DNA from: a virus
Lineage: Duplodnaviria > Caudoviricetes
Length of the DNA: 64,000 bases
Direction: 5' to 3' (one strand)
Virus record (IMG/VR): IMGVR_UViG_3300008255_000118
Coordinates: 24,333 to 88,332 of that record
The notes under the pieces: generated by a model
Told to the model about the DNA's origin: nothing
The model's input: only the letters and a program-made list of their open reading frames with translations
Databases searched by the model: none
Position numbers and translations under genes: made by a program
Shown here: in pieces, positions 24,199 to 62,931 of the stretch
Layout: each line of letters opens with the position of its first letter
Position numbering within the stretch: the first letter of the stretch is position 1

Positions 24199-24465
24199 CT
24201 AATTTTCTCTAACTATTCTGACAAACTTAATACCAGTATTCAGTACCCTAATGTACTCTAACTTATCACCGCCATACTTATTAGGGAGTCTACCTCTTCT
24301 AACAAACTCTTTCCCTTCATGAGGAGTAAAACTAGCTTCACTAGATTTGCTATACTTCTCTGTTAGATATTTAGCAAATTCTGTTAAAGTATAGCAATCT
24401 TTATCTACCATACTCTCTTCTACCTCAATAATAAATTCATCTTCTTGTTTTTCTTTCTGTTTCAT
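24199..24465 (-). CDS. Hypothetical protein, possible helix-turn-helix DNA binder
   Basis: 88-aa ORF; YTLTEFAKYL...RRGRLP resembles a MerR/excisionase-type HTH. Confidence 0.45.
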   Translation of the reverse strand: MKQKEKQEDEFIIEVEESMVDKDCYTLTEFAKYLTEKYSKSSEASFTPHEGKEFVRRGRLPNKYGGDKLEYIRVLNTGIKFVRIVREN

Positions 24466-46643: not shown

Positions 46644-48158
46644 TTAGGCTACTACTCTATCTTTTCGACCAATATTGATAAATCTGATAATCTTACCAGG
46701 AGCATAAACAATTGGAGTACCATAAAGAAGAACCATGAATCTTCGGGCTGGGCCTAAGATTGCTAAATCCATCTTCATTAAAGGTGCTAATTGTTTGAAT
46801 TCATAAACATCTGTATCATGTTGTGTCAAGTAGGCATTTTCAGTTCCTGGTAAGTATCTGTTACGATCTCTTACTTTTCCAACTGCTGCACCATCAACTC
46901 CATTAGCTAAAGAACCACGTTTTGCATCAGAGCCTGTTACTGGCACTGTCATAATTGGGTAGAACATTGTTGTTGCTGCTGCACCTTGAGCTCCTGTTTG
47001 GCTACGATAAACGATATAGGCATTAGGAGTATAAGCACCTACACCTGCAGTAAACTCTAAATCTACTGAATCAGTTACATTAGTGATAGTCACCACTGCT
47101 GGGACTAACATTAAACTAGATTCACCATATCGATTAATAGCAGAGACTGCATATCTTACATCTCCAATACTATCATCAAATCTAGATGAAGTGTCATCAT
47201 TTACCACTACAGCACCAACATATACTGGGGCAGTAGGAGCTTTTGGAGAAGTTTGTACTGAATTGCCTAATCTACCTTGGCCTTTGGTAGCGAAGATATC
47301 ATATTCAAAGTCAATTTTACCATATTGTGATTGGAAGCCTGGTACATAGGTACCACCAATTACGCCATTGTTGTTGTTACCTGTGTTAGAACCAACAAGC
47401 ATTCTTTGTCTTGCATAATAGTTTTCAGCAAAATCGGACAATACTACTGGAGGAGCTATCAAGAAGTTTGGCTGAGCAAATTGATTGATCAAAACTTCAC
47501 AGGCACCATTAATAGTTTGTTCTTTCATGGTTTTACCTCTCAAGTCAACTACTAGAGGAGAAGCCATATACTCATTAAGGGTAGAGTAGTTTTCATTATT
47601 CATGTGTTGAGAATAGATCCCGTTGTATTCTTGTCTTACAACTTTATCATCACCAAAGAACAAGCCTTTGTTAGCTTTTCTCAAAATCCACAAAATACCA
47701 TTTGTAGTTTCTCTCTGAATAAGACTACCAATCTTGGTCGTTACTAGTTCCATTGGGTGGGTAACTGATTTAGTCACACCAAGGAACTTAACGTGTTCGG
47801 CACGTCTTAAGTATTCAGAATCTTCTTCTTCTGGTAATTCACCTTCATTGTTAAAGCCACCTCGATCAGCACCATAAGATGTTAATTGATTAAACTCTTC
47901 AACTGTATTATAAGCTGCTGACTTAGGGAACTTTTTCCACAAACGGATATCTGATTCTCTAAATTCTAACATCTTTAAGGAGCTTTCTAGTGACTCTACT
48001 TTTAGAGCACCAGAATTCGTTTGGTCTGAGTTGCCAATAGCGCCACCCTGTAATTGACCTGCTTCTAAAGCCTTGCTTAATTCTGCTAAATCTCCGCCTG
48101 AAACTGCATCAAATCCACCATAATCAGAAAGACCTATAGATAAAGGAACTTCTTTCAT
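46644..48158 (-). CDS. Major capsid protein
   Basis: GALKVESLE..LK.L, AYNTVEEFNQL..YG, KFL..T..V, PLMKM.LA; Twort/SPO1-type. Confidence 0.93.
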   Translation of the reverse strand: MKEVPLSIGLSDYGGFDAVSGGDLAELSKALEAGQLQGGAIGNSDQTNSGALKVESLESSLKMLEFRESDIRLWKKFPKSAAYNTVEEFNQLTSYGADRGGFNNEGELPEEEDSEYLRRAEHVKFLGVTKSVTHPMELVTTKIGSLIQRETTNGILWILRKANKGLFFGDDKVVRQEYNGIYSQHMNNENYSTLNEYMASPLVVDLRGKTMKEQTINGACEVLINQFAQPNFLIAPPVVLSDFAENYYARQRMLVGSNTGNNNNGVIGGTYVPGFQSQYGKIDFEYDIFATKGQGRLGNSVQTSPKAPTAPVYVGAVVVNDDTSSRFDDSIGDVRYAVSAINRYGESSLMLVPAVVTITNVTDSVDLEFTAGVGAYTPNAYIVYRSQTGAQGAAATTMFYPIMTVPVTGSDAKRGSLANGVDGAAVGKVRDRNRYLPGTENAYLTQHDTDVYEFKQLAPLMKMDLAILGPARRFMVLLYGTPIVYAPGKIIRFINIGRKDRVVA

Positions 48159-50389: not shown

Positions 50390-50593
50390 CTACCTTGGGA
50401 TCTTTTCCAATAATCTATTTTGTAGTCTAAGAGCTGATATCTCTAACTCTTTCTTTGATATTTTAACTTTATACTCTGATACAATCTCACCAGCCTGTAT
50501 AATCTGATTCTCTCTTAGAATCAGTTTCTTCTCTAATTTCACAATCTTGTCTTTGAGTCCTCTTCTACCCAAAAACCAATCTAATCTACTCAT
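50390..50593 (-). CDS. Small coiled-coil hypothetical protein
   Basis: 67-aa ORF. Confidence 0.5.
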   Translation of the reverse strand: MSRLDWFLGRRGLKDKIVKLEKKLILRENQIIQAGEIVSEYKVKISKKELEISALRLQNRLLEKIPR

Positions 50594-51561
50594 ACTTCTG
50601 TTGTTTTATCATTAACAGTAACTCTTACCTTACTATGTCTTTCTACTTTTGGTCTATTTAGTTCTTTGAGTTTCTCCCAATTCTTAATAAACATTGTACC
50701 ATCCCATTCCCAAATCCCCTGAAATCTATCCTGTATAGTAAATCCCTTAGGGACCCTTTCTATTGTACAACGGCACCACGGGTGAATTGGTCCAATTACA
50801 GGTCTCCATTCAGCTACCTTGAAACCTATATTAGTACCATTAGCCTTCAACTGGGCTACAGTAAAGATAATAGGTTCTGAGGATACTCCTCCTGTTAGAA
50901 ACAGTCTTTGACAATGTTGGCAAGCTCCTTGGTACACATCCTTGTATACTAAAGCATCATCTCCCTCCTCTTTCTGTATCTGTGCTATTCTACCTTCATC
51001 AAATGCTGTGTGTAAAACAAAATCACCTATTCTGCCTAAATCTCTCTCCCAGTCACCCGTCTTCTTACCTAGAATAGATACAACTTCTGACAAATACTTT
51101 CTATCCTCTATTGCTTTCTTAGCAGCATCTGTTACTAGTTTTGTATGTTGAACTGTATGTCTTTTCTTGTCGGCAACTACAAAAGTATCTGTTACCTGAG
51201 ATTTGATACTCTGTCCCAGCTTCTTAACATCTTGATAAGTTTGAAACTGAAGACTCTGTAATGCACTTCTCTCTAAAGAGGTTAATGGAGCAAACTTAGC
51301 TATACTACTCTTTAGTTGAGGGTAAGTTAAGTTCTTTAGTGCACTATCCTGTAATATCTGAGATAGCATCCCGAATCTATATGCTTCTGTTATTTTAGAT
51401 GAAGAGCTCTCTATCTTAGAGATATCTACACCACTAATCTGTAGTATAGCTCTATCTTGTTCTGATAATACTGTAGTGCCTACATTATGTGCCACAAAAA
51501 GAATAGTATAGTTGTCCACTATAGCTAATAGTTCATTAAGTTGTTGTGGACTTAAGATCAT
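50590..51561 (-). CDS. MuF-like minor head morphogenesis protein
   Basis: AC.HC..L ... GPIHPWCRC. Confidence 0.8.
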   Translation of the reverse strand: MILSPQQLNELLAIVDNYTILFVAHNVGTTVLSEQDRAILQISGVDISKIESSSSKITEAYRFGMLSQILQDSALKNLTYPQLKSSIAKFAPLTSLERSALQSLQFQTYQDVKKLGQSIKSQVTDTFVVADKKRHTVQHTKLVTDAAKKAIEDRKYLSEVVSILGKKTGDWERDLGRIGDFVLHTAFDEGRIAQIQKEEGDDALVYKDVYQGACQHCQRLFLTGGVSSEPIIFTVAQLKANGTNIGFKVAEWRPVIGPIHPWCRCTIERVPKGFTIQDRFQGIWEWDGTMFIKNWEKLKELNRPKVERHSKVRVTVNDKTTEV

Positions 51562-51563
51562 TA

Positions 51564-51773
51564 TTATAGATCTTTATTCAATATATCATCTAACTCTTCT
51601 TCTTGTCTCTCCTTAGAACCTGTTTTAAGAGTATCTATCAATTCTTTATGTTCATCTATGAACTCTTCTTTAGACATCTTTACTTCTTTCCCTTTGTTCA
51701 AGTCTACTCCAAATCCGTTTAGAATAGATTTATTTCTGTTTAGAATAGATTTATTTCTGTTTATCAATGACAT
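51564..51773 (-). CDS. Putative internal head protein (leader + LNKG)
   Basis: N-terminal ..ILNGFGVDLNKG shared with neighbours. Confidence 0.6.
   Translation of the reverse strand: MSLINRNKSILNRNKSILNGFGVDLNKGKEVKMSKEEFIDEHKELIDTLKTGSKERQEEELDDILNKDL
51717..51763. repeat. 21-bp tandem duplication encoding NRNKSIL x2 in the leader
   Basis: GTTTAGAATAGATTTATTTCT repeated twice plus a partial copy. Confidence 0.9.
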
Positions 51774-51921
51774 TCTGTAGATTTTCTTTAATTCCTTTGA
51801 TTATTAATTTGCCCACTAGAGAAAAGTTCCTGTGAAATTCTCCTTCATACTGTAGTATGACTGGGTACCTCACAGGGTCTTTATGTCCAGGTATTTTAGC
51901 ATTTACTGTTTTCTTAGCCAT
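51751..51921 (-). CDS. Small 56-aa protein (MAKKTVNAKIPGHKDPVRYP...), absent from ORF track
   Basis: Manual translation; overlaps both neighbours as expected for coupled genes. Confidence 0.5.
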   Translation of the reverse strand: MAKKTVNAKIPGHKDPVRYPVILQYEGEFHRNFSLVGKLIIKGIKENLQNVIDKQK

Positions 51922-52505
51922 TCTTTTTCTGTTTTCTTTTCGGCTGGCTTCTTACCAAGGTCCCTAAACTCTACTTTCTCCTCTTTCACTGGAGCATGTG
52001 CTGTGGCTACTAACTTATTCACAATCTCTTGTGGTACCACTGCCTGGGCTTCAGGTGTTAACCCTCGGTATATCTCATAAGCCTTAGCTGGGTCAGTTTG
52101 TAACACTGTTTTAATGTATGTAAGCTGGGCAATCTCATGTCCACCTACTTGAGGCTGTTGGTTAGGCTGGCCTGTAGCAGCACCTGGCTTAGCACCTAGC
52201 TGTCCTGCTGGTTTGTCTTCTGGAACAGCTGGTTTAGCTACTGCTGGTGTACTAGCTACTGGAGAAGATGTTCTACTGGCTGATTCAGATTTCTTAGTTA
52301 CTGGAGCTGTTTTCTTTTCAGGTGTAGCTTTCTCTCTACCACTACCTACTGGAACCCAACCTTGAGGTGTTTTCTTTACTTTCACTCCACCATGGACTCT
52401 TTCTTCACCCATGGCTGCTGGTCTACCTTTTTCTAACCCGAAGCCTCCAAGTAGAGAGTTAGTTTTCTCTAATCGGTTTCGTTCCATTGCTTTCTTAATA
52501 TCCAT
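51903..52505 (-). CDS. Putative internal head protein (leader, LEKG, G..W module, Pro/Ala-rich linker)
   Basis: FGLEKG-RPAAMGEERVHGGVKVKKTPQGW. Confidence 0.65.
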   Translation of the reverse strand: MDIKKAMERNRLEKTNSLLGGFGLEKGRPAAMGEERVHGGVKVKKTPQGWVPVGSGREKATPEKKTAPVTKKSESASRTSSPVASTPAVAKPAVPEDKPAGQLGAKPGAATGQPNQQPQVGGHEIAQLTYIKTVLQTDPAKAYEIYRGLTPEAQAVVPQEIVNKLVATAHAPVKEEKVEFRDLGKKPAEKKTEKEWLRKQ

Positions 52506-52563
52506 GATATTATATTTTACTTTGTTTTTCTAGTATTACTTCTCTGATACTTATCTTATTTTG

Positions 52564-53295
52564 CTAATTATTCTTACTGTAGTGATCTTTTTCTTTATCA
52601 AACTTCCCTTCTCTCTGCATCTCTGATAGTACTGTCTGGGTAGCTCTTTCAGAGTCTTTAGTTGTATGGGTCTTTACTCCCATTCTTGTCAACTCCTTGT
52701 TTACCCTTTTGGTTCCCTTAAGTACATCTATGGCTTGGGATAAGCTTGTTGCTGGTTTTCCAAGTTTTTTATAAGCCCTTCTTAACATCTCCTGTTCGGC
52801 TTGGTACTGCATTGGTGTCCCAACCTGTGTAATAGAGTGATGTATCACTTCATCAATTGGAGTTTCTACAAACCTATTATCATTAGTATCTTCACCTATT
52901 TCATGTGGCAGATATTTACTCCCTTCTGATGCTGACTTAGGTTCCACTACATCACCTGCAATTCTCATTGCAAAATTATGCTTACTTTCATCAGGCTTAG
53001 ACCATCTAGTTGATGATTTACTATCAGTATATGAATAGATTCCATCATCTCCTGTTTGCATCTCTTTTCTAATTACATCTATCTTCTCTTCAAGATCTTT
53101 ATGTGTATCACTAACGTCTCCTTCTGCTTTCTGAGTTCCCTTCTTCTGATAGACCCAGCCTTGTGTAGTCTTAACCTCACCATATTTATTGACTGTACCG
53201 ATTGGGACAGCCTTAGCTTTTTCTAGTTCAAAACCCTTAGAGATGTTTAGTCTCTCCTCTGATTGTTTTCTTAGTATTGCATCTCTGATATTCAT
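52564..53295 (-). CDS. Putative internal head protein (leader, LEKA, G..W module)
   Basis: FELEKA-KAVPIGTVNKYGEVKTTQGW. Confidence 0.65.
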   Translation of the reverse strand: MNIRDAILRKQSEERLNISKGFELEKAKAVPIGTVNKYGEVKTTQGWVYQKKGTQKAEGDVSDTHKDLEEKIDVIRKEMQTGDDGIYSYTDSKSSTRWSKPDESKHNFAMRIAGDVVEPKSASEGSKYLPHEIGEDTNDNRFVETPIDEVIHHSITQVGTPMQYQAEQEMLRRAYKKLGKPATSLSQAIDVLKGTKRVNKELTRMGVKTHTTKDSERATQTVLSEMQREGKFDKEKDHYSKNN

Positions 53296-53320
53296 GTCTC
53301 TTGTATTAGTATTGTCAAGA

Positions 53321-53345
53321 TAAAACTAAGTATAATTTTTATACT
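53321..53345. promoter_or_regulatory. AGTATA-N5-TATACT motif; 25-bp identity with 7408-7432
   Basis: Exact sequence match. Confidence 0.65.
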
Positions 53346-53366
53346 TACAAACTTTACTTTATAAAA

Positions 53367-55526
53367 CTATAAAGAACTAATGTATTCTCCTAGATTCTGG
53401 AGAGCTTTTTTTAGTTCATCGGATTCATAGATAGTCTTCATAGCCCTAAAGGCATTAACCCCCCTCTTAACTGCTGCTAGAGGAACAAAGTCTTCACCAT
53501 ATTGAATTCCCTTAACTTTCTGAACACCAGCAGACTCTCTTAAATTAGGCATAACTTCATCTTTCATCTGTGAATAGGCATAGCCCACTATTTCTGGTTT
53601 AGTATACCCTTTCTCAACTAGTGTCTTATATAGTTCTTGTGTTACTGATATAGTTGGTACAGCATGTCTATTTAACTTAGATTGTAGTACCCTATTCACA
53701 CCATCTACAATCAGCTTCCCACCATCTGTCTTAGTAATAGCTAGTACAGGTGGCATACTAGAGAAGTCTTGATCTTTTCTCCATCTAACTGTTTCTTTTT
53801 TCAAGTTGAATTGCTCTGAGGAAGCTACTTTAACATAGAATGGGTCTTCTGCTGTAAGTGTAATTCTAGACCCTCTATCAGAAACTGAAATATGATCTAC
53901 TTCTCGAGTTATACTCTCTAATCGTTCTGAAGTTAAGTTACTGTAGCTACCAACTACATCTCTAACAGTTCTATGGTCTGCCCTGAGTGTAGTAACAGAT
54001 ATAGTTTTGATAGGTAGTAGATTATCTTCACCTGTCTTTATTAAGTTATCTATCCCTTGTTTATTATTATGATAAAATGAAAAGTATTCAGCAAAGGCTT
54101 CTTCTGGAGATACACTGGCATAGTCAGTAATTAGAGGGATAGTATGATTTCTGCCTTGTCTTATTACTGCCTTTTCTTCTCCTGTAGCTTTCTCCTGCCC
54201 ATCTTTCATATTATCTTGCATCCAAGACCAACCTGTTTCTACAACAAACTTCTTATATGGTAAAGAGCCCTGTCTGCCTAGTTTCTGAGAAACTGAATGC
54301 CCTACCTCATGTACTAGTACAGCTTTAAATAGAGCCGAATCTGTCTTACTGGCATACAAACTACTCTTCTCTAATAGCTTATCACTTAAACTAATAGCTA
54401 GAGAGCTTGGGACATAATAAGCATATGCGCCTAGTCCTCTATTTGTATATTCATTATTCTTTAGTCTTTTTAAACTATCATTAGATAAAATATGTCCTCT
54501 TGGCAGTTCAAAAGAGATCTCTTCAAATATCTTTAGAGCGCCTAGAGTATCAGCCTTCCACTCTCCATCTAACTGAATATTAAGTCTGTCTTCAAATCTA
54601 AGTTCTAGTAAATCAAAGTAGTCTAAGCTTGAGTTCTCTTGTAGTTTGCCCATTAACTTAGTATAGAACTCCTCTGTTGGTGCATCTATAGTAGTACCAA
54701 ATATCTCTTTCTGCTCCTCTATTGAATCTAGCTTTATCTCTTCACGGAATTTAGTAAGATAGTCTCTATACTTATCTTTAGCATAACCCTTGAAAGACTC
54801 CTCCACAGCCCAATTGTCTCCAAAAAACTTATGAATAATCTCCAATGCATTATCATAAGACTGTTTCTTTACTTTCAACTTATCATACTCCAATGGCAAT
54901 CTATCAACTAGATTCTTGGCTGCTGTGTAAGCTACTTTTTCATCTCCCTCAAACTCTAGTCCTCTCTTTACATCCTGATAAACCTTCTTTACAACCTCTT
55001 TCAATTCGACAGCCTCCTGTATATCAAAAACTGGACCACTATAGTTATACCCAGACTTAACCTTCTCTTTGACAGTTTTTATCTCAGTAGAATCTAACAT
55101 GTAGTTATCATTATTTCTATTACTTCTTTGCTGTTTAAGTTCATCCCAAAGAGCATCATTTATCTTACTCTCTAAATCTAATCTGGGAGACATGGCTCTT
55201 CTATTAAACTCAGAAATAAAACTATATGATGTATTTCCATAAAATCCTCTGTATTGCTTAAAGTCCCCAGGATGGTAGGGACCTTCCTTTCCATCTTCTT
55301 TCTTGAATTCTCTAATCTCTCTGTCTAAGTACTTCTCACCATTTAGAGGGATGTCATAGTTGATAATTGCATTGGCTAGTGTATCACATTGTCTCCCTAT
55401 CTCAAATACCTGAGAGTTAGCAGGAAGAACTATCCAAGCCTCTTTCATAGGAGAGTTTTCATGAGCTTTGATTACGGGACCACTAGCCCAATGTCTTACT
55501 GTACCAACAGGTGCTTTCTTAGCCAT
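53367..55526 (-). CDS. Putative virion cargo: G..W module + HEXXH zinc metalloprotease + ParB/Srx-like domain
   Basis: APVGTVRHWASG; HEVGH with downstream DYA..SPEEAFAEYF; PPVL......LIVDGVNR. Confidence 0.7.
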   Translation of the reverse strand: MAKKAPVGTVRHWASGPVIKAHENSPMKEAWIVLPANSQVFEIGRQCDTLANAIINYDIPLNGEKYLDREIREFKKEDGKEGPYHPGDFKQYRGFYGNTSYSFISEFNRRAMSPRLDLESKINDALWDELKQQRSNRNNDNYMLDSTEIKTVKEKVKSGYNYSGPVFDIQEAVELKEVVKKVYQDVKRGLEFEGDEKVAYTAAKNLVDRLPLEYDKLKVKKQSYDNALEIIHKFFGDNWAVEESFKGYAKDKYRDYLTKFREEIKLDSIEEQKEIFGTTIDAPTEEFYTKLMGKLQENSSLDYFDLLELRFEDRLNIQLDGEWKADTLGALKIFEEISFELPRGHILSNDSLKRLKNNEYTNRGLGAYAYYVPSSLAISLSDKLLEKSSLYASKTDSALFKAVLVHEVGHSVSQKLGRQGSLPYKKFVVETGWSWMQDNMKDGQEKATGEEKAVIRQGRNHTIPLITDYASVSPEEAFAEYFSFYHNNKQGIDNLIKTGEDNLLPIKTISVTTLRADHRTVRDVVGSYSNLTSERLESITREVDHISVSDRGSRITLTAEDPFYVKVASSEQFNLKKETVRWRKDQDFSSMPPVLAITKTDGGKLIVDGVNRVLQSKLNRHAVPTISVTQELYKTLVEKGYTKPEIVGYAYSQMKDEVMPNLRESAGVQKVKGIQYGEDFVPLAAVKRGVNAFRAMKTIYESDELKKALQNLGEYISSL

Positions 55527-55689
55527 GTACTTCTTTTTTCTCTTCTACTCTTCTTTTTATTTCTTCCTCAATTTCAGTTACAAGTGAAGTATTTCTTGAA
55601 GCTGAAGATCTGATTAAACATTTGTGCATAGTATTTAACTCTTGAGTTGTTTTTCCAGTAATGCCGGAATTTACTATTAGTTCTTCCAT
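55519..55689 (-). CDS. Small 56-aa protein (MEELIVNSGITGKTTQEL...), absent from ORF track
   Basis: Manual translation; A-rich start context; stop overlaps next ATG. Confidence 0.6.
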   Translation of the reverse strand: MEELIVNSGITGKTTQELNTMHKCLIRSSASRNTSLVTEIEEEIKRRVEEKKEVHG

Positions 55690-55696
55690 TGTAATT

Positions 55697-58198
55697 TTAT
55701 TTAGTCCTTTGATTTAATGCACCTCTTATATCTTCTTGTCTTCTCTGAGTAGCTCTCTCCTCTAAAAGTCTCTTTTTGTGAAACTCTATAATCTGACTTT
55801 GCTTAACATTCATTAATGATCTGGCTGCAAAGTCTCTGTAGAATTCATTTTCATTATTTGCAAACTTGACACCACCTCTAACATGTAATAAGGCTAAGGC
55901 CCCTAGAGTACGACCATTTACTTGTGTTACTGGCATATGATCTTTATACTTCTTGATAAAGTTAATGGCTGCCTCTCTGTGTTCTATCGCAACCTCAAAT
56001 GGTTCACCATTTCTGTCTTCAAATGGTAGCTTGTTCTTAATTCTGTCTAACTTATCGATAGTCTCATCCATTGTTCTTGAAACGTCTAAGGCTAAGGCCC
56101 TTGATTCTAGCAATGGTGATGCCACTTGTTTTAGCTTCCTTTCTGATAGATTAGAAATGATAATCACTCCACCTGTAAACTTAAACCTAGTTGGTAGTCT
56201 ATCATCACCTTGTGAACTTTTAATAGGGCCCCCATCCCATACTACGTCCTCTAGAGTTGTATCTGTTGCTGCCTTAAGAATGTTCACTGAATCTTCATCT
56301 AACAATACTGAATCAGCATCATCAAACAAAATTACTTTCCCATTATGCTCATACAAGACTCTAAATAACTTACTAGGAGTTACCTTCCCTGTAAACTTAA
56401 TCAAGTCATATTGCTCTGATGTTGGGTTCAGTTCAGAATCATACTCTACCAACTTATTATCAAAAACTTCTCCTGTATCCCCATTTAATGTTTCTGGGTT
56501 TAGAAGGACTTGTTTCACCCCATAAGTGTTATGAGTAACAAGAAAATCATCTGTAATGTAAAGATGTTCTGGGTGATCAATAAGTATACATTTTGTCTCT
56601 TCTTCTCCAATATACTGTATATCAATAATGGAAAGAGAATCAATTGGGGGCTTTTTAGTCTCTTGTATTCTTTCAACCTTAAAAGGAAGAGATACTGGGA
56701 TGATATGTCCTGGGAGCATAAAAGTTACTTCCCAGAATAGTTTATTTGACCCATTTTTTACATTGTAGTCATTAGAGGCTACTTTAGCAAATCCCCCTCC
56801 CATACTACAAACTAGGTGGTGAAACTGTTTAGCAAGCTTCTCTGAGACTGAAGTAAAGGAACAAATACCCTCTTTATCAACAAACCCATCTGAATCCATT
56901 AGCCCTTGTATAAGTTCTAACTTTTCTTCAGAAGAACATCTAAAATACTCCTCTGGTATAAACTTTGTATCAGATTTTGTGCCATATAGCTTATAGTCAG
57001 AAATAGCTTTTGATAATAGTGTTCTGAATCTTCCATTTTTTGAAGATTTCAGACTAGTACTTGTAATAGAATAATCACACTGACTTCTATATACTATACT
57101 AGACTCTGTTCCTAGCCTTTGTTGTATCTTCTCTAGTATAAACTCTTTATCTCTGTCCCCTACACTAAAAGTAATCCCCTCTGTCCCTGACCAGCACCCA
57201 TCTCCAAGTAGAAACCCGATTAACCAAGGGTCTACTTTCACTTTACTTCTTCTCTTATGTTGAAATGGTTTCTCTAATAAGGGAATACCAAACATATACT
57301 CAACTCCATCTTTCTTCTTTAGCCCCCTTTTCTTAATCTCACTTAAAGGTAACACCTCCCAGGTATATGTATTTCTCTCTTTAACTTTCCAGAGATGCTC
57401 TTCATCACATCTTGATTTTCTGCCATCCTTAAAAGTAACTTCATAAACTGGTCTAATGCCTTGTGGATAGATTCTAAGAACCTTAGACTCTGTACCATAG
57501 GGAGTAATAACAGAATCGCCTACTTCAATATCTCCCATCAACTTAAATCCATAAGGAGTTAGAATAGGGGTAGTAAGAGTTGCTGCCTTCCCAACCCCAC
57601 CTGTACCATAAAACATTGCTAGTTTTCTCTCTTTCTTAGCTATCATATCAGTAAACTTGTCCTGTACTGTATCTACTGAATCTTTACCTGTAAGAGGGTT
57701 AATTTTGTCTAAATCAGAATCATCAAAGTCTAGACCATCGGCCTCTAAGAGCATTCTAATAGACTCTTCTATTGATTTATTATCTTCATCAGAAATAGGT
57801 AGTGTAGCTTCGATAGTCTCCTCAAAGGTAGCACCTGATAGTAGTGATAGGGCTCTTGGACTAGCTACTCCAGCTTGTTGTAGTTGTGTAAGTTTCTCAG
57901 AAGATGGGGCATCATTATTTGTAACTCTCATTATATGAAGTATCTTCTGTGCTGCCTGTTGTGGTGTTACATGCCAATGTAATGCTAGTATATCATCAAC
58001 CTCTCTTTTCCCTCCTTGTGTTCTAGAGGTGTCTTGATAGACCTTCCACTCTCCATTTGGCATCTTTACATTCTTGATACCATCCCATTCTCTAATTTCG
58101 CCTACCACAGCTCTTTTCCCTTTCTCAAGAGAATCTAAGAGATTCAATTGATGACTTAACTTGCTTTGCTGAATTAGTCCTCTTATACTATTGTCCAT
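55697..58198 (-). CDS. Putative virion cargo AAA-type ATPase with class-3 intein
   Basis: Leader + LEKG + G..W module; GTGGVGK|T Walker A; ILFDDADS Walker B; F.FTG.VIIISN; L.SRA. Confidence 0.8.
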   Translation of the reverse strand: MDNSIRGLIQQSKLSHQLNLLDSLEKGKRAVVGEIREWDGIKNVKMPNGEWKVYQDTSRTQGGKREVDDILALHWHVTPQQAAQKILHIMRVTNNDAPSSEKLTQLQQAGVASPRALSLLSGATFEETIEATLPISDEDNKSIEESIRMLLEADGLDFDDSDLDKINPLTGKDSVDTVQDKFTDMIAKKERKLAMFYGTGGVGKAATLTTPILTPYGFKLMGDIEVGDSVITPYGTESKVLRIYPQGIRPVYEVTFKDGRKSRCDEEHLWKVKERNTYTWEVLPLSEIKKRGLKKKDGVEYMFGIPLLEKPFQHKRRSKVKVDPWLIGFLLGDGCWSGTEGITFSVGDRDKEFILEKIQQRLGTESSIVYRSQCDYSITSTSLKSSKNGRFRTLLSKAISDYKLYGTKSDTKFIPEEYFRCSSEEKLELIQGLMDSDGFVDKEGICSFTSVSEKLAKQFHHLVCSMGGGFAKVASNDYNVKNGSNKLFWEVTFMLPGHIIPVSLPFKVERIQETKKPPIDSLSIIDIQYIGEEETKCILIDHPEHLYITDDFLVTHNTYGVKQVLLNPETLNGDTGEVFDNKLVEYDSELNPTSEQYDLIKFTGKVTPSKLFRVLYEHNGKVILFDDADSVLLDEDSVNILKAATDTTLEDVVWDGGPIKSSQGDDRLPTRFKFTGGVIIISNLSERKLKQVASPLLESRALALDVSRTMDETIDKLDRIKNKLPFEDRNGEPFEVAIEHREAAINFIKKYKDHMPVTQVNGRTLGALALLHVRGGVKFANNENEFYRDFAARSLMNVKQSQIIEFHKKRLLEERATQRRQEDIRGALNQRTK
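56528..57586 (-). mobile_element. 353-aa class-3 (Ala1, WCT) intein with LAGLIDADG endonuclease
   Basis: AATLTTPILTP start; EHLW (block B), TKCILID (block F Cys), VTHN/T; IGFLLGDG and IQGLMDSDG. Confidence 0.92.
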
Positions 58199-58199
58199 A

Positions 58200-58734
58200 T
58201 TAGAATATTTTTATATTGATTGTACCAGCATAGATGAGTTTACTATTGGCTAAACTAGCCTAAATCCCATACATCATTCTCTCCCTTACATATTGTAGAT
58301 CAGTTAGTACTTGTCTGTATTCAAACTGGCCATCTTTATTAACAATACTTAAATTGCTCCCCTATACCAGACATAAAATAGAGTCCGCTTTTACTCTTAG
58401 ACTTCTCTAGACTAAGAGACCTCTCATTTAATGTCTGTATCTGTTTATATGCATCTGTTAACTGCTGACTTAAAGATATAAATTTGTCTAATGATTCTCT
58501 CTTTCTGTAGAGACTTTTTCTCGCTTAACTGAAAAGACTTCTCTCTAACGACTTTGTTAAGTTTAGCGTTATTGAACTAATCTCAGCTTTCAATCTATCA
58601 ACCTGTTCTTGTAGAACTTCACTAGCTTGTCTCTTAAGGTCCTCTTTCTCTCTAGCATTGTAAATATACTGAACCACTAGTAATACTAGCAGAGACACTA
58701 TGATCCAGTGCCATATGGTGAGTCTTCTAAGCAT
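58200..58734 (-). pseudogene. Disrupted TM/coiled-coil/beta-strand protein (spanin-like candidate)
   Basis: Coding-like sequence continues past TAA at 58525 and a +1 shift in the G4 run (58359-62), through TAG at 58260, to TAA at 58200, one base before the next ATG. Confidence 0.6.
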
Positions 58735-59029
58735 TCTTTGATGGGATTAACATCTCTACTACTGAACAACCATTAACTTGTCTCAATCTATAAACTGAAC
58801 TATCTACACATTCTAGAAGATGTCCATCTCTAAGATCTAACGTCTCCTTCTTCTCTATCTTCTCTTTCACTACACTTATCTTTAGTAAACAATCTTGAAC
58901 TTCATACCCGTCTACTATTAGTTGTTTAGCTACAGGGTGGTCTGTCCCTCTATTGCCTACATATCTCCAGGTGCCATCTGGCATCTTGATTTCCTTTGAC
59001 CTATTAATAGTCCCAATTTTAATTGCCAT
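58727..59029 (-). CDS. Small protein with G..W module
   Basis: IKIGTINRSKEIKMPDGTW. Confidence 0.6.
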   Translation of the reverse strand: MAIKIGTINRSKEIKMPDGTWRYVGNRGTDHPVAKQLIVDGYEVQDCLLKISVVKEKIEKKETLDLRDGHLLECVDSSVYRLRQVNGCSVVEMLIPSKNA

Positions 59030-59047
59030 ATCTACGATTTTAAATTA

Positions 59048-59680
59048 TTAGTCTTCATACTCATCCTCATCATCCTCTTCAAACTTTGCATCTAGATAGT
59101 CATTAATTGCCTCTTCTCTGTCTGTTCCATCCCAGAACTCTGTTTCCCCTTCTTCTAAACCTAGATAGTCCTCTAAATCTTCTCCTCTTAACTCATCAAT
59201 TTGTTCAAATAACTCCTCTCTAGTAAATTTTTCTTCTGAATTCTCTACTACTTCATCAATAGGAACAAATGATGTTTTCAGGTGTTCCTTTATTTTCTTC
59301 TCAATAGCTTCTTTGAACTTCCCTATCTCCTCTGGGCTGGACATTTTCTCTAATTCAGCAAACTTAGAGGATATACTTTCAGGTAAATGTGTGGCACCTG
59401 TTTCTTTCCAGGCATCAAAATCACTATCATAGTTCTCCACTACATCATCTAGTATCTCATTCATTAATGGAATACCAATCTCTTTAAACTCCTTACTCTG
59501 AAAGTCTACTTTCTTCTTCTTCATTTGTTTATTAAGCCCTAAAGAATCATTTGTACCACCATACCTTTGTCCTACTCGGTTCAGTCTCCTGTTTTCTTCA
59601 TTATCTTTATAGGTTCCCTTTTCAAGATCAAATCCCTTTTGTAGAGATAATTTTCTATTCTTTCTGATATTTAAGTCCAT
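59048..59680 (-). CDS. Putative internal head protein (leader, LEKG, acidic)
   Basis: MDLNIRKNRKLSLQKGFDLEKG; YKDNEENRRLNRVGQ. Confidence 0.65.
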   Translation of the reverse strand: MDLNIRKNRKLSLQKGFDLEKGTYKDNEENRRLNRVGQRYGGTNDSLGLNKQMKKKKVDFQSKEFKEIGIPLMNEILDDVVENYDSDFDAWKETGATHLPESISSKFAELEKMSSPEEIGKFKEAIEKKIKEHLKTSFVPIDEVVENSEEKFTREELFEQIDELRGEDLEDYLGLEEGETEFWDGTDREEAINDYLDAKFEEDDEDEYED

Positions 59681-59714
59681 CTTAATAGTTTTTTAAAGTT
59701 TGAGTATAAAGGTA

Positions 59715-59731
59715 AGTATAAAATCTATACT
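59715..59731. promoter_or_regulatory. AGTATA-N5-TATACT motif
   Basis: AGTATA-AAATC-TATACT in 59-bp intergenic gap. Confidence 0.6.
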
Positions 59732-59739
59732 ATACAACT

Positions 59740-60126
59740 TTATTTTAATGTCTTCTTATGTTTCTTGGCACTCTCCATCCATTTCTTGATCTCCTCATTC
59801 TTTTTCTTGTGTTGGCTAGTATCATGGTGCCTATCAAACTCTGAAGTATGGTGTTCATTTCTTTTGCCTTCTGTCTTTTCATTATAATCTAAATGGGCAT
59901 ATGAGGCATCATCATGGTCTTTAGAGGTGTATTTCTTTTCAGCCATTGCATTGTGTGTTTCATATACTGGTTTCCCTGATTTGGTATGACCAATGATCTT
60001 TCCTCCTCTAGACCCTTCACCACCTTTTTCTAGAATCATAAATCCTCTTAGAATAGATTCACCTTTCTTTAAGTTAAAATCTTGTTGTAGAGATTCTTCT
60101 CTGTTTTTTCTAATACCTAAGTTCAT
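59740..60126 (-). CDS. Putative internal head protein (double leader, LKKG/LEKG, His-rich)
   Basis: MNLGIRKNREESLQQDFNLKKG...LEKG-GEGSRGGKIIGHTKSGKPVY. Confidence 0.65.
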   Translation of the reverse strand: MNLGIRKNREESLQQDFNLKKGESILRGFMILEKGGEGSRGGKIIGHTKSGKPVYETHNAMAEKKYTSKDHDDASYAHLDYNEKTEGKRNEHHTSEFDRHHDTSQHKKKNEEIKKWMESAKKHKKTLK

Positions 60127-60137
60127 AACTATTATTT

Positions 60138-61856
60138 TTATTTTGTTAACATCTGTAGAGCATCTGCTAGCATAGGGTTCTCTTTCATACCTAATGGTAA
60201 GTTGTTCATAGTGGCCTTTACAAAGTCTTCTGAATTTTGATCTGGGTCTTCAAAATCTAGAGTGTCCCATACATTACCTTCAGCCTCTTGAGTATTATCT
60301 TGAGACTGGCCGCCAAACATTGCTGATTGTTCCTGTGTTGATATTCTTTGAATATACTGAGCATTTAGTGGGAAGTCTCCTTTCTCTAGATCTTCTGGGA
60401 GATTCATTGCTCTTCTCCACTCTCTATATCCCATACCATTCTGAACTTTCTTGTTTAAGAGCTCTACTTGTTTTTCCTCAGAGTCAGCATCTACACCTAC
60501 AAAGACAAACTCAAAATCATCACTTAGTCTTGATACTAGATACTTATTAATCCAAGACTCTATCGACTTTAGTAATGGCTTTAGACCCTTATCTCTAGAA
60601 TACTCTAGTCTAGTCTTTGAATCAGAGCCAAACATTGAACTACCACCGCCTGCATTTCCCAAATTAAAGCCCACCTCTTCTGGAGCTATCTTAAAAATAG
60701 CACAGGCTACTTTAATCAAGTATTCTTGCCATTGAGCAAACTGCATATCAGTATTCTTAGACTGTAAGTCTACCCAGTCCATACTATCACTCTCCATTAC
60801 TGGTATTTTCCAAGCATTGTCTACTCCAGCTACCATTGATTGCCAAGATTGTCTGAACTCAGCTAATCTGTTTCTATTAGCTCCTGGAGCTATTTTAATG
60901 ATACCTTTTGGAGAACTGCCTTGAGAGAAGAATTTACCATTATACGTGTCTGAGTACAACATCCAGGTTATGATCTTGATAAGTTGCTCTATTTCAGAGT
61001 TACCATATCCGTTCATATTAATGTCTGTAGATTCATTCCTGACCCCAAAACATAGTTGCCATGGATAGTACTCAGCTACAATCTGTTGTTCTATTACCTG
61101 TACATAAGATGGGTAATAGCCCTTTATTTTCTTTTTATCTGAGAAGTTTTTGTCATCTCTATCATCATCATATGAATCAGCTATGTAGATAGTGCCTGAG
61201 TCCACAGCTAAATATTCAACGGGATCTCCCTTTCTATCCTCCACTACTTCAAAACAAGCTTGATCCATTTCAAATGAATCAGCTACAAGTTTTTTAAGGA
61301 AAGAGTCAAATGCATCCCCATGCCATTTGTTATCCAGAGTACCTCCATTTAGAATAAATTCAGTAATTCTTTGTATTTCTTTTTTGTCAACATCTGTGAT
61401 ATCAGGCTGTTCATCTGAGTAAAATTGTCTCTTTCTTCTAACTACAAAGCCTGTACTATATCTATTTGATTGTGGAGCCGAAAAGGCACTTACCTGTGCT
61501 TGTCTAGTTGATATAATTGCTCTAACAATCGGAGTCTTAGACATAACTCTGAGAGTACTATTATCTAACTTAAGTCTCTTTCTTCTATACCCTTCAGCAT
61601 CATCCCATCTATATGGGTTTACTAGAAGACTTTTCTTGTTCCCTCTCTCCCTCTCCATTACTCCCTGTAAGAAGGCAGTTGCCTTAACTAAAGTTTCAGC
61701 ATCGTTAGATTGTAAGCCACTCTTAATCAAGAGTTGTTCCTGTGCCTCTAGTTTAGCCTTTTCTAGTTCAATATTATCAAGTGTAATTCTTCTATCAGCA
61801 CCTTGTCCTGAAACTGTCCCATTACTAGTACTTGTAGTTACGTAATTATAGATCAT
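60138..61856 (-). CDS. Portal protein
   Basis: I.TR..QV, D....DQ..FE, YG.SEIE, N..FFSQG..PKG, W...L.K..CA.F...P.E.GF, GL.PLL..IE..IN. Confidence 0.92.
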   Translation of the reverse strand: MIYNYVTTSTSNGTVSGQGADRRITLDNIELEKAKLEAQEQLLIKSGLQSNDAETLVKATAFLQGVMERERGNKKSLLVNPYRWDDAEGYRRKRLKLDNSTLRVMSKTPIVRAIISTRQAQVSAFSAPQSNRYSTGFVVRRKRQFYSDEQPDITDVDKKEIQRITEFILNGGTLDNKWHGDAFDSFLKKLVADSFEMDQACFEVVEDRKGDPVEYLAVDSGTIYIADSYDDDRDDKNFSDKKKIKGYYPSYVQVIEQQIVAEYYPWQLCFGVRNESTDINMNGYGNSEIEQLIKIITWMLYSDTYNGKFFSQGSSPKGIIKIAPGANRNRLAEFRQSWQSMVAGVDNAWKIPVMESDSMDWVDLQSKNTDMQFAQWQEYLIKVACAIFKIAPEEVGFNLGNAGGGSSMFGSDSKTRLEYSRDKGLKPLLKSIESWINKYLVSRLSDDFEFVFVGVDADSEEKQVELLNKKVQNGMGYREWRRAMNLPEDLEKGDFPLNAQYIQRISTQEQSAMFGGQSQDNTQEAEGNVWDTLDFEDPDQNSEDFVKATMNNLPLGMKENPMLADALQMLTK

Positions 61857-62284: not shown

Positions 62285-62767
62285 TCATTTCTTTTTAAAA
62301 GCACTGATACCTCCTCTTACGGCTCTATCGCCAAAATATGCTCCATTGATAGTTAAGAAAAGCGTTTCTAACATAGATACATAATTTTCTGGCACAGGCT
62401 TAGCTCCGAAATAATCAGCTACGATTAAAACCAATATTAAGAACCAGCTAAAAAGTAATATAATAGGTCTCACGTTTTTTGATAGCCAAGAATCCGAAGA
62501 CATATCTGTTTGCCAACGTGAGGTTATTTGCTTAGCGTTTTCAAGTTGTGCATCTATATCTATCTTATAAAACTCCAAAGCCTGTTTCTTTACCTCTTCA
62601 GGCAAAGTGCTATCGCCTTGTATAAGGTCGTGTAGGGTGTTTAAAAATGGAATACCTGTAACACTCCCCGCAACACTAAAAGCCTTGCCTATGAGGTCTG
62701 ATTTGCCTAATGAGCGAATGAAATCGCCTAGCTTAGTTGTGCCGTGTTCATCTTTGTACTTTGCCAT
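62285..62767 (-). CDS. Holin (3TM/GTA-release type); likely start is the ATG at 62767
   Basis: DSWLSKNVRP followed by two hydrophobic segments and YFG.R. Confidence 0.8.
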   Translation of the reverse strand: MAKYKDEHGTTKLGDFIRSLGKSDLIGKAFSVAGSVTGIPFLNTLHDLIQGDSTLPEEVKKQALEFYKIDIDAQLENAKQITSRWQTDMSSDSWLSKNVRPIILLFSWFLILVLIVADYFGAKPVPENYVSMLETLFLTINGAYFGDRAVRGGISAFKKK

Positions 62768-62769
62768 AA

Positions 62770-62931
62770 TCAGGCTAAACAACAATCAGGGTAAACAATA
62801 ATTAAGGTAAGCACTAAAACCAAGCAAAAGAATAAAGCTATAGGCCGCTTGTTTTTGTTTAGCCAATTACTAGCAACGCTAAATGCCTTGCTTAATTTAG
62901 AAGTTCCGTGTTCGTTTGTGTGTTTTTTCAT
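62770..62931 (-). CDS. 53-aa internally deleted holin paralog (candidate antiholin), absent from ORF track
   Basis: MKKHTNEHGTSKLSKAFSVASNWLNKNKRPIALFFCLVLVLTLIIVYPDCCLA; three blocks match the adjacent holin. Confidence 0.72.
   Translation of the reverse strand: MKKHTNEHGTSKLSKAFSVASNWLNKNKRPIALFFCLVLVLTLIIVYPDCCLA

Follow-up and report, generated by a model that had tools for sequence, protein, structure and literature searches.

Putative head-internal cargo genes of an uncultured tailed phage share a probable lysine cut-site motif and alternative N-terminal header modules

The window analysed here is a 64,000-nucleotide stretch of the Caudoviricetes record IMGVR_UViG_3300008255_000118 (positions 24,333 to 88,332). 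This IMG/VR virus record is 88 kb long, with an estimated completeness of ~64%, and the window forms its final 64 kb. All genes of the window lie on the minus strand, and eleven open reading frames (ORFs) stand between the portal gene and a MuF-like head gene. Several of these ORFs combine a short N-terminal leader, an L-x-K-[AGS] motif and one of three small modules, termed header modules. The portal-to-MuF ORFs probably encode head-internal cargo that is trimmed by the phage's own HK97/SPO1-type prohead protease and keeps the header at its mature N-terminus. Motifs, enrichment, conservation and the homology of the protease and the capsid site to those of Herelleviridae were computed; from these we infer cleavage, packaging, a role for the header and injection.

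Six minus-strand ORFs of the interval, each named here by its lower coordinate, open with mutually similar leaders of 21–34 amino acids (aa) that end in L-x-K-[GA], and the start codon in each is the first ATG past the upstream stop. The leader ends are DLNK/G (ORF 51564), GLEK/G (51903), ELEK/A (52564), SLEK/G (55697), DLEK/G (59048) and NLKK/G plus ILEK/G (59740), with the slash marking the putative cut. These are the six ORFs listed in the initial annotation of this DNA, and all of them were found as described. A hidden Markov model (HMM) of the six leaders, searched against all six frames of the 88-kb genome, matches those six only (E-values of 6e-14 to 2e-8; next match E > 1). BLOSUM62 scores between leaders exceed the scores of leaders against the N-termini of 102 other ORFs (Mann–Whitney p 4.5e-8), and 10 of the 15 leader pairs lie above the 95th percentile of the background. 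Leave-one-out leader HMMs are weak: three of the six left-out leaders rank directly behind the training members (E 0.01–0.03), two rank lower and one is undetected. Part of the ORF 55697 leader is predicted to be helical.

The leader likeness is confined to paralogues of one genome, because a profile built on 83 leaders of other phages misses those of the window and because the leaders of 123 database proteins vary from 6 to 64 residues, with little in common beyond [DEN]-[DE]-[LI]-E-K. The candidate of a conserved leader family was dropped on the profile result. Two of the window's leaders contain tandem duplications, which suggest recent slippage or recombination within leaders. In ORF 59740, the C-terminal half of the leader is duplicated together with its own cut site, giving the two sites listed above, and in ORF 51564 a 7-aa unit is duplicated.

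Three alternative header modules, A, B and C, are found behind the site. Module A (G-E-I-R-x-W...G-K-W) occurs in ORFs 55697, 52564 and 51903, in the leaderless ORF 58727 and, doubtfully, in ORF 53367. Module B (G-S-R-G-G-K ... S-G-K-P-I-Y) is carried by ORF 59740 and module C (Y-x-D-x-x-E-N-R-x-L-x-R-V-G-Q-x-Y-G; NRKLGRVG type) by ORF 59048. A module-A HMM built from 255 database segments of other phages only recognizes ORFs 51903 (E 6e-11), 55697 (E 1e-8), 52564 (E 4e-5) and 58727 (E 1.5e-3). ORF 53367 is marginal to this HMM (E 1.3), and its first half alone aligns. The single G..W module that the initial annotation had assigned to five ORFs is therefore real and corresponds to module A, with ORF 53367 as the doubtful member, but two further modules stand beside it and ORF 51564 has none. 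The placement of that module as a prospective new N-terminus holds behind the leaders of ORFs 51903, 52564 and 55697, whereas ORFs 58727 and 53367 open directly with it.

All modules are glycine-rich and have a net charge of +2 to +4. In the AlphaFold2 prediction for module A, which used an 11-sequence alignment, a helix at the leader end is followed by a low-confidence exposed linker at the site and by a three-stranded β-meander with a pLDDT confidence score of 86–89. Module B is modelled as a β-hairpin (pLDDT 70–81). A Foldseek comparison of the module-A model with the Protein Data Bank (PDB) gave nothing significant, and its best match, a 34-residue phiKZ capsid chain (E 0.11), was not used as evidence. 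Neither the leader nor module A, B or C matches a family in Pfam, PHROGs or NCBIfam, and the ESM Atlas gave no usable match for ORF 59740. A full-text literature search with the module strings returned no paper on the three modules or on their link to a lysine cut site; no description of the site-plus-header anatomy with its three modules is found in these family databases or in that literature search.

Relatives were gathered through the portal and through an alignment of the MuF-like protein. The architecture of leader, [LIF]-E-K-[GAS] and module A, B or C is kept in the relative loci L004, L008, L014, L015, L019, L022, L025, L027 and L028 and in Chryseobacterium phage MA9V-3. This phage (39.5% identity) and Bacteroides phage DAC16 (42% identity) are the nearest cultured phages; MA9V-3 encodes three module-A proteins (L002 2997, 5301 and 5989), and DAC16 encodes one module-C protein and a capsid site, with no obvious leader array. 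The proteins past the modules change between phages, and the portal-to-MuF interval spans 0.8–8.5 kb among the relatives. Some module copies lie inside proteins behind a site, such as those at residue 236 in L014 7518 and at residue 231 in L002 5989.

A profile of the leader end, the site and module A was searched against 1.84 billion representative proteins and retrieved 1568 clusters at E ≤ 1e-3, with 210 at E ≤ 1e-10. The best 150 module-A proteins range from 68 to 2495 residues and carry one to four modules each, and module-A proteins often bear 2–4 copies placed at internal junctions. An adjoining hydrophobic-x-K-[GAS] accompanies 254 of their 269 modules, a count that is biased by the presence of the site in the search profile. 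Comparison of 74 of the best 150 proteins with Pfam identified LPD1, PBECR1, ART-PolyVal, InPase, NUDIX, topoisomerase I, SAM lyase, MuF_C and ADP-ribosyl exotoxin domains, which, as judged from these matches, is the phage-type polyvalent repertoire. The enzyme domains borne by tagged proteins of other phages are interchangeable. In the wider family, several effector domains, among them LPD1, PBECR1 and ART-PolyVal, are joined in one polypeptide of up to 2495 aa. Comparison by HMM across phages, which the initial annotation had suggested for leader and module alike, thus fails for the leader and succeeds for module A.

For modules B and C, DNA patterns were built without the site and matched 71 and 86 IMG/VR stretches, respectively. 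The hydrophobic-x-K-[GAS] motif lies 5–9 residues or directly upstream of the module in 66 of 69 (module B) and 64 of 68 (module C) distinct IMG/VR contexts, and for module C the 64 sites are directly upstream. Positions outside the search pattern are almost invariant in these contexts, and module B of ORF 59740 agrees with the IMG/VR consensus at almost all positions. In approximately half of the module B and C loci (median length 7.5 kb), a counterpart homologous to the portal, MuF-like protein, protease or capsid of this phage lies within ~7 kb. Among 185,579 prokaryotic species, represented by one genome each, module B occurs once, on a contig labelled Flavobacteriales, and therefore comes from rarely integrated phages rather than from chromosomes or conjugative elements.

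Simpler searches reached less far. Two N-terminal pieces of 56–60 aa gave nothing at E ≤ 1 by tblastn against GenBank phages, and a word-indexed protein search with residues 1–60 of ORF 55697 returned three close relatives only, whereas an exhaustive HMM search reached more. By these comparisons, the unit conserved across phages is the site plus the module and not the leader. Two further features of the modules were observed. Approximately 10–15 residues past module B, the module-B contexts contain a second conserved element, [FY]-x-x-x-D-H (aa 66–72 of ORF 59740), so module B may be the front of a somewhat larger unit. In two ORFs of L128 (IMG/VR 3300031998_000024), module C runs straight into the start of module B (...Y-G-G-K-G-S-R-G-G), so header modules can be stacked.

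These data bear on the part that would direct packaging. The leader itself may be a capsid-targeting sequence that suffices for any protein, in the style of T4 and P1 DarB, with the module as the mere start of the mature protein. The six leaders are significantly alike in one genome and confined to interval ORFs, ORF 51564 consists of leader and site with no module, and short N-terminal peptides are sufficient for packaging in T4 and P1 (PMC9024508). A self-sufficient leader is nonetheless rather unlikely, given the leader profile that fails outside its own phages, the variable length and sequence of leaders elsewhere, the module-first ORFs 58727 and 53367 in the same cluster and the internal junction copies that have no leader at all. 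The wide conservation of site and module, together with these two leaderless ORFs, suggests that the module, rather than the leader, has a conserved partner. In a broader and tentative proposal, which may hold but is not the expected outcome, the three basic headers rather than the leaders would serve uncultured phages of a very large group as a general address-and-anchor code. Whatever polypeptide starts with a header behind a Lys site would then be packed, freed by the capsid protease and kept on the DNA or the capsid wall for co-injection; the injected proteome of thousands of phages could be readable from sequence, and the modules could be usable to load foreign proteins.

The cut-site motif is concentrated in head proteins. 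The protease–scaffold fusion has 17 copies of L-x-K-[AGS], one of them at residue 15, against 1.25 expected from shuffles of the same protein. The portal contains five copies against 0.6 expected (p 2e-4), and L-x-K-[AS] stands at its residues 31, 43 and 56. One copy is present in the tail sheath and none in the MuF-like protein; the 94 other ORFs taken as background average 1.69 copies per 1000 residues. A site within residues 11–38 is found in 6 of the 11 interval ORFs but in 5 of 94 ORFs elsewhere (Fisher p 1e-4). The initial annotation had reported at least 15 motifs in the protease–scaffold, an LSKA in the capsid and further sites near the portal N-terminus, with one or two in the sheath, and had named as refuting a motif no more frequent here than in replication proteins; the counts agree with it on each point and withstand that test.

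The protease and the capsid connect this motif with Herelleviridae. The capsid protein has L-S-K/A at residues 27–30, followed by L-E-A-G, which aligns with L-N-K/A-L-E-A-G of SPO1 Gp6.1 (PDB 9vel). The capsids of LP-048 and phage K have A-L-K/S and V-V-K/S, respectively, at residues 24/25. PDB 9row contains a Twort-like capsid chain of 439 residues. The chain in PDB 5lii, another Twort-like entry, is 24 residues longer (463) and thus as long as the phage K capsid precursor, and the alignment register of the 9row chain is shifted to match. This agrees with phage A511, in which the capsid protein Cps is reportedly cleaved between Lys and Ser, as seen by N-terminal sequencing. The SPO1 scaffold contains 11 sites against 1.3 expected, and the SPO1 protease contains 8 against 1.5. 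A site ~15–20 residues into the protease is present in the window, four relatives, SPO1, LP-048 and phage K. Residues 1–165 of the window's protease match the prohead protease of an SPO1-like phage (SPO1L4; E 3e-12) and the protease of the A511-like Listeria phage LP-048 (annotated Peptidase_U35; E 5e-16) by BLASTP, and its His/Ser motifs N-W-H-H and L-S-L-E-G align with N-F-D-H and F-S-V-E-G. Given the protease homology, the alignment of the capsid site with SPO1, the K/S sites of Herelleviridae and the motif-rich SPO1 scaffold, L-x-K-[AGS] is very probably the cut site of the prohead protease. The protease-site part of the earlier idea of a leader tag plus protease site is thereby strengthened, but the leader tag is not the conserved element.

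The motif might instead stay uncut, with E-K-G and the module forming one structural or docking unit, such as a joint for a common partner, in proteins that are packaged whole or are not virion proteins. The residues around the site are indeed conserved along with the modules. This arrangement is improbable, as the same motif is hugely over-represented in the scaffolds of this phage and SPO1, which are degraded during head maturation, stands at the capsid maturation site common to Herelleviridae, and precedes three unrelated modules and one module-less peptide. Cleavage by another enzyme, whether a trypsin-like protease of the host or the zincin contained in the 719-aa cargo protein, is very improbable: ORF 53367 contains an HEVGH zincin motif (aa 406–410, 54297–54311) with a sub-threshold match to Pfam ATLF (anthrax lethal-factor-type metallopeptidase; E 9e-4), and autoproteolysis by the metallopeptidase domains of polyvalent proteins is proposed by Iyer et al. 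2017 (PMC5512222), but the inspected relatives keep the sites while none of their interval ORFs resembles ORF 53367 by size and N-terminus (no HEXXH or homology search was made), and the sites match those of the capsid, the scaffold and the protease N-terminus, which are classical prohead-protease substrates.

Several observations weigh against cargo trimming by the prohead protease. In addition to the biased module-A count and the 83-leader profile that passes over the window's leaders, ORF 51564 lacks a module behind its leader, the module of ORFs 58727 and 53367 is not preceded by a leader, and neither part alone therefore accounts for all members. E-K-G is nearly constant before module A and could be a structural part of the module instead of a cut site. 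A search of the complete genome with Pfam Peptidase_S78 (PF04586) gave nothing at E ≤ 1. The same is true of Pfam Phage_Mu_F (PF04233), and the MuF label that the gene at the downstream end of the interval originally received is not supported by Pfam: its resemblance to MuF is limited to the C-terminal H-P-x-C-R-C motif and the position beside the portal.

If the portal-to-MuF ORFs do encode trimmed cargo, the following mechanism is proposed. The cargo would enter the procapsid with either the leader, as in T4 and P1 DarB, or the module as its address. The prohead protease would cut past Lys in hydrophobic-x-K/[GAS] and remove an N-terminal propeptide of 21–34 residues, so that a short, basic, glycine-rich header (A, B or C) becomes the new mature N-terminus. 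Internal junctions of long polyvalent proteins would also be cut, yielding separate pieces with a header each. The header may fasten its piece to DNA or to the inside of the capsid wall, in the manner of P1 DarA–Hdf (PMC12810830), and the propeptide may merely aid entry or keep the protein quiet until it is inside. The cargo would leave the head together with the DNA.

Phage proteins that are injected with DNA are known for a handful of model phages only, and they decide the first minutes of infection through anti-defence, host take-over and toxins. A signature of protease site and header, which marks more than 1500 protein clusters, would list candidate injected proteins of uncultured phages. 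It would also explain the shuffling of effector domains between phages at fixed junctions and supply small tags with which foreign proteins could be loaded into Bacteroidota phage capsids. Because T4, P1 and phiKZ-like phages already exemplify the principle, the advance lies in breadth and parts, not in the concept.

The genes run from the portal through the eleven interval ORFs to the MuF-like gene, two small ORFs, the protease–scaffold fusion and the capsid gene (Table 1). The MuF-like gene forms the conserved downstream border of the cargo interval.

Table 1. Head genes and putative cargo genes of the window, with leader and module boundaries
Feature	Coordinates	Strand	Details
Portal protein	60138..61856	-	Pfam Phage_portal E 6e-24; PHROG portal families
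ORF 59740, 128 aa	59740..60126	-	Leader aa 1-34 (60025-60126); module B aa 35-55 (59962-60024); then His-rich tail
ORF 59048, 210 aa	59048..59680	-	Leader aa 1-21 (59618-59680); module C (NRxLxRVGQxYG type) aa 22-42 (59555-59617); then acidic tail
ORF 58727, 100 aa	58727..59029	-	No leader; module A from aa 2 (aa 2-27, 58949-59026); external module-A HMM E 1.5e-3
ORF 55697, 833 aa	55697..58198	-	Leader aa 1-26 (58121-58198); module A aa 27-54 (58037-58120); then P-loop ATPase
ORF 53367, 719 aa	53367..55526	-	No leader; N-terminus module A-like with insertion (aa 2-34, 55425-55523)
ORF 52564, 243 aa	52564..53295	-	Leader aa 1-26 (53218-53295); module A aa 27-49 (53149-53217), HMM E 4e-5
ORF 51903, 200 aa	51903..52505	-	Leader aa 1-26 (52428-52505); module A aa 27-54 (52344-52427), E 6e-11; then Pro/Ala-rich region
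ORF 51564, 69 aa	51564..51773	-	Leader aa 1-27 (51693-51773) with 7-aa tandem duplication; no module
MuF-like head protein	50590..51561	-	C-terminal H-P-x-C-R-C motif; zero L-x-K-[AGS]; conserved in 19 IMG/VR loci
Prohead protease (aa 1-165) fused to scaffold, 516 aa	48225..49775	-	PHROG head maturation protease E 2e-19
Major capsid protein, SPO1-type	46644..48158	-	PDB 9vel Gp6.1 E 1e-74; PHROG major head protein

Past its site, ORF 51564 encodes a 42-aa acidic helical peptide. ORF 55697 contains a 353-aa intein with a LAGLIDADG domain (aa 205–557, 56528–57586) that splits the Walker A motif (G-V-G-K before and T after the insertion). The first residue of the intein is Ala, and it ends in H-N followed by Thr; the intein-free 481-aa homologue P0003 is continuous over the junction. 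For ORF 53367, a ParB/Srx-like C-terminus is not supported by Pfam, as ParB_N is undetected anywhere in the genome. On the minus strand at 58340–58734, a 69-aa membrane ORF ends at an in-frame TAA that is followed by 61 further open codons with a plausible coiled coil and an L-E-K-S motif. This open frame fills most of the 326-nt gap before ORF 55697, where Rfam finds nothing, and a nonsense mutation, read-through or an error in the sequence might each account for the TAA.

A small leaderless ORF of 51–82 aa with the motif K-D-[AP]-P-R-[FY]-P ... Y-E-x-x-F is located at 51751–51921 of the window. Its counterparts in the relatives (L014 5929, L015 6441, L017 9754, L019 4689, L021 4629, L022 8930, L025 7833, L027 8463 and L028 3230) make it a feature of nearly all of them, a few kb and often directly upstream of the MuF-like gene, and it is probably a conserved small head protein of no assigned family. 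Upstream of the portal, two holin-like membrane ORFs (62285–62785 and 62770–62931) share an N-terminal block, and each has L-x-K-[AS] at residue 13–20, which may be a processing site or a chance occurrence. In relatives, small ORFs upstream of the portal (L003 4357 and 4902, L014 1488 and 2080, and L019 4934) have a leader-like start that ends in hydrophobic-x-K-[GAS], and the tagged set may therefore reach beyond the portal-to-MuF interval. The window's own contig stops 2.1 kb past the portal.

Among known systems, the head-maturation machinery resembles that of Herelleviridae (SPO1 Gp6.1, PDB 9vel; phage K and phi812, PDB 5lii; A511), with a homologous capsid and protease, a Lys site at the same N-terminal place of the capsid and a motif-rich scaffold. 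In the three Herelleviridae loci inspected (LP-048, SPO1L4 and phage K), however, the portal, protease, scaffold and capsid genes follow in a row with no cargo interval. The putative cargo recalls the polyvalent proteins (Iyer, Burroughs, Anand, de Souza and Aravind 2017, PMC5512222), which contain the LPD1, PBECR1, ART-PolyVal and MuF_C domains seen in module-A proteins elsewhere and are encoded beside portal and MuF genes. The passages searched in that paper mention neither a lysine cut site nor these header modules as junctions, and the window's cargo is mostly distributed over separate genes instead of one long fusion. ORF 53367, with its zincin and unassigned regions, and ORF 55697 come nearest to the polyvalent type, with no hallmark Pfam domain above the cut-off.

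The propeptides of phiKZ-like ejection and inner-body proteins, such as the substrates of SPN3US gp245, are thought to act in head targeting (PMC10052503, PMC5694885). There, too, a single short motif serves as the processing site in many head proteins, but that motif ends in Glu, the phages are jumbo phages and no common module lies past the site. The P1 Dar system has in common with the proposed one its cargo, which is of the antirestriction type and includes a large polyvalent protein, its address at the N-terminus and its processing by the prohead protease. For DarB, 30 N-terminal residues are enough for packaging (PMC9024508), and DarA is cut by the protease Pro and bound to the inner capsid wall and DNA (PMC12810830). 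Both systems have a basic part, which in P1 contacts DNA and is lost from the head together with it, and would do so here. No sequence relation to P1 is seen, however, the P1 loading order is fixed via DarA–Hdf and no common header module is known in P1.

In T4, gp21, the prohead protease, removes the capsid-targeting sequence from IPI–III and Alt (Mullaney and Black 1996, as cited by PMC9024508 and PMC10052503). As in the window, a short N-terminal peptide stands on unrelated proteins, and its end is the consensus site for the head protease of the same phage; the T4 cargo remains inside the head until injection. Bench work has proven the T4 system, whereas the window system is known from its sequence. 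The T4 leaders look unrelated to those of the window (no direct comparison with T4 was run), and T4 has no counterpart of the three header modules or of the internal junction copies. The window system is best read as a functional analogue of the T4 capsid-targeting sequence and of P1 Dar that appears to be assembled from different parts; it would be an analogue and not a member of the T4 system because its protease is related to the SPO1/A511-type (U35) enzymes, of SPO1/HK97 type, and because the residue preceding the cut (position P1) is Lys here and Glu in T4.

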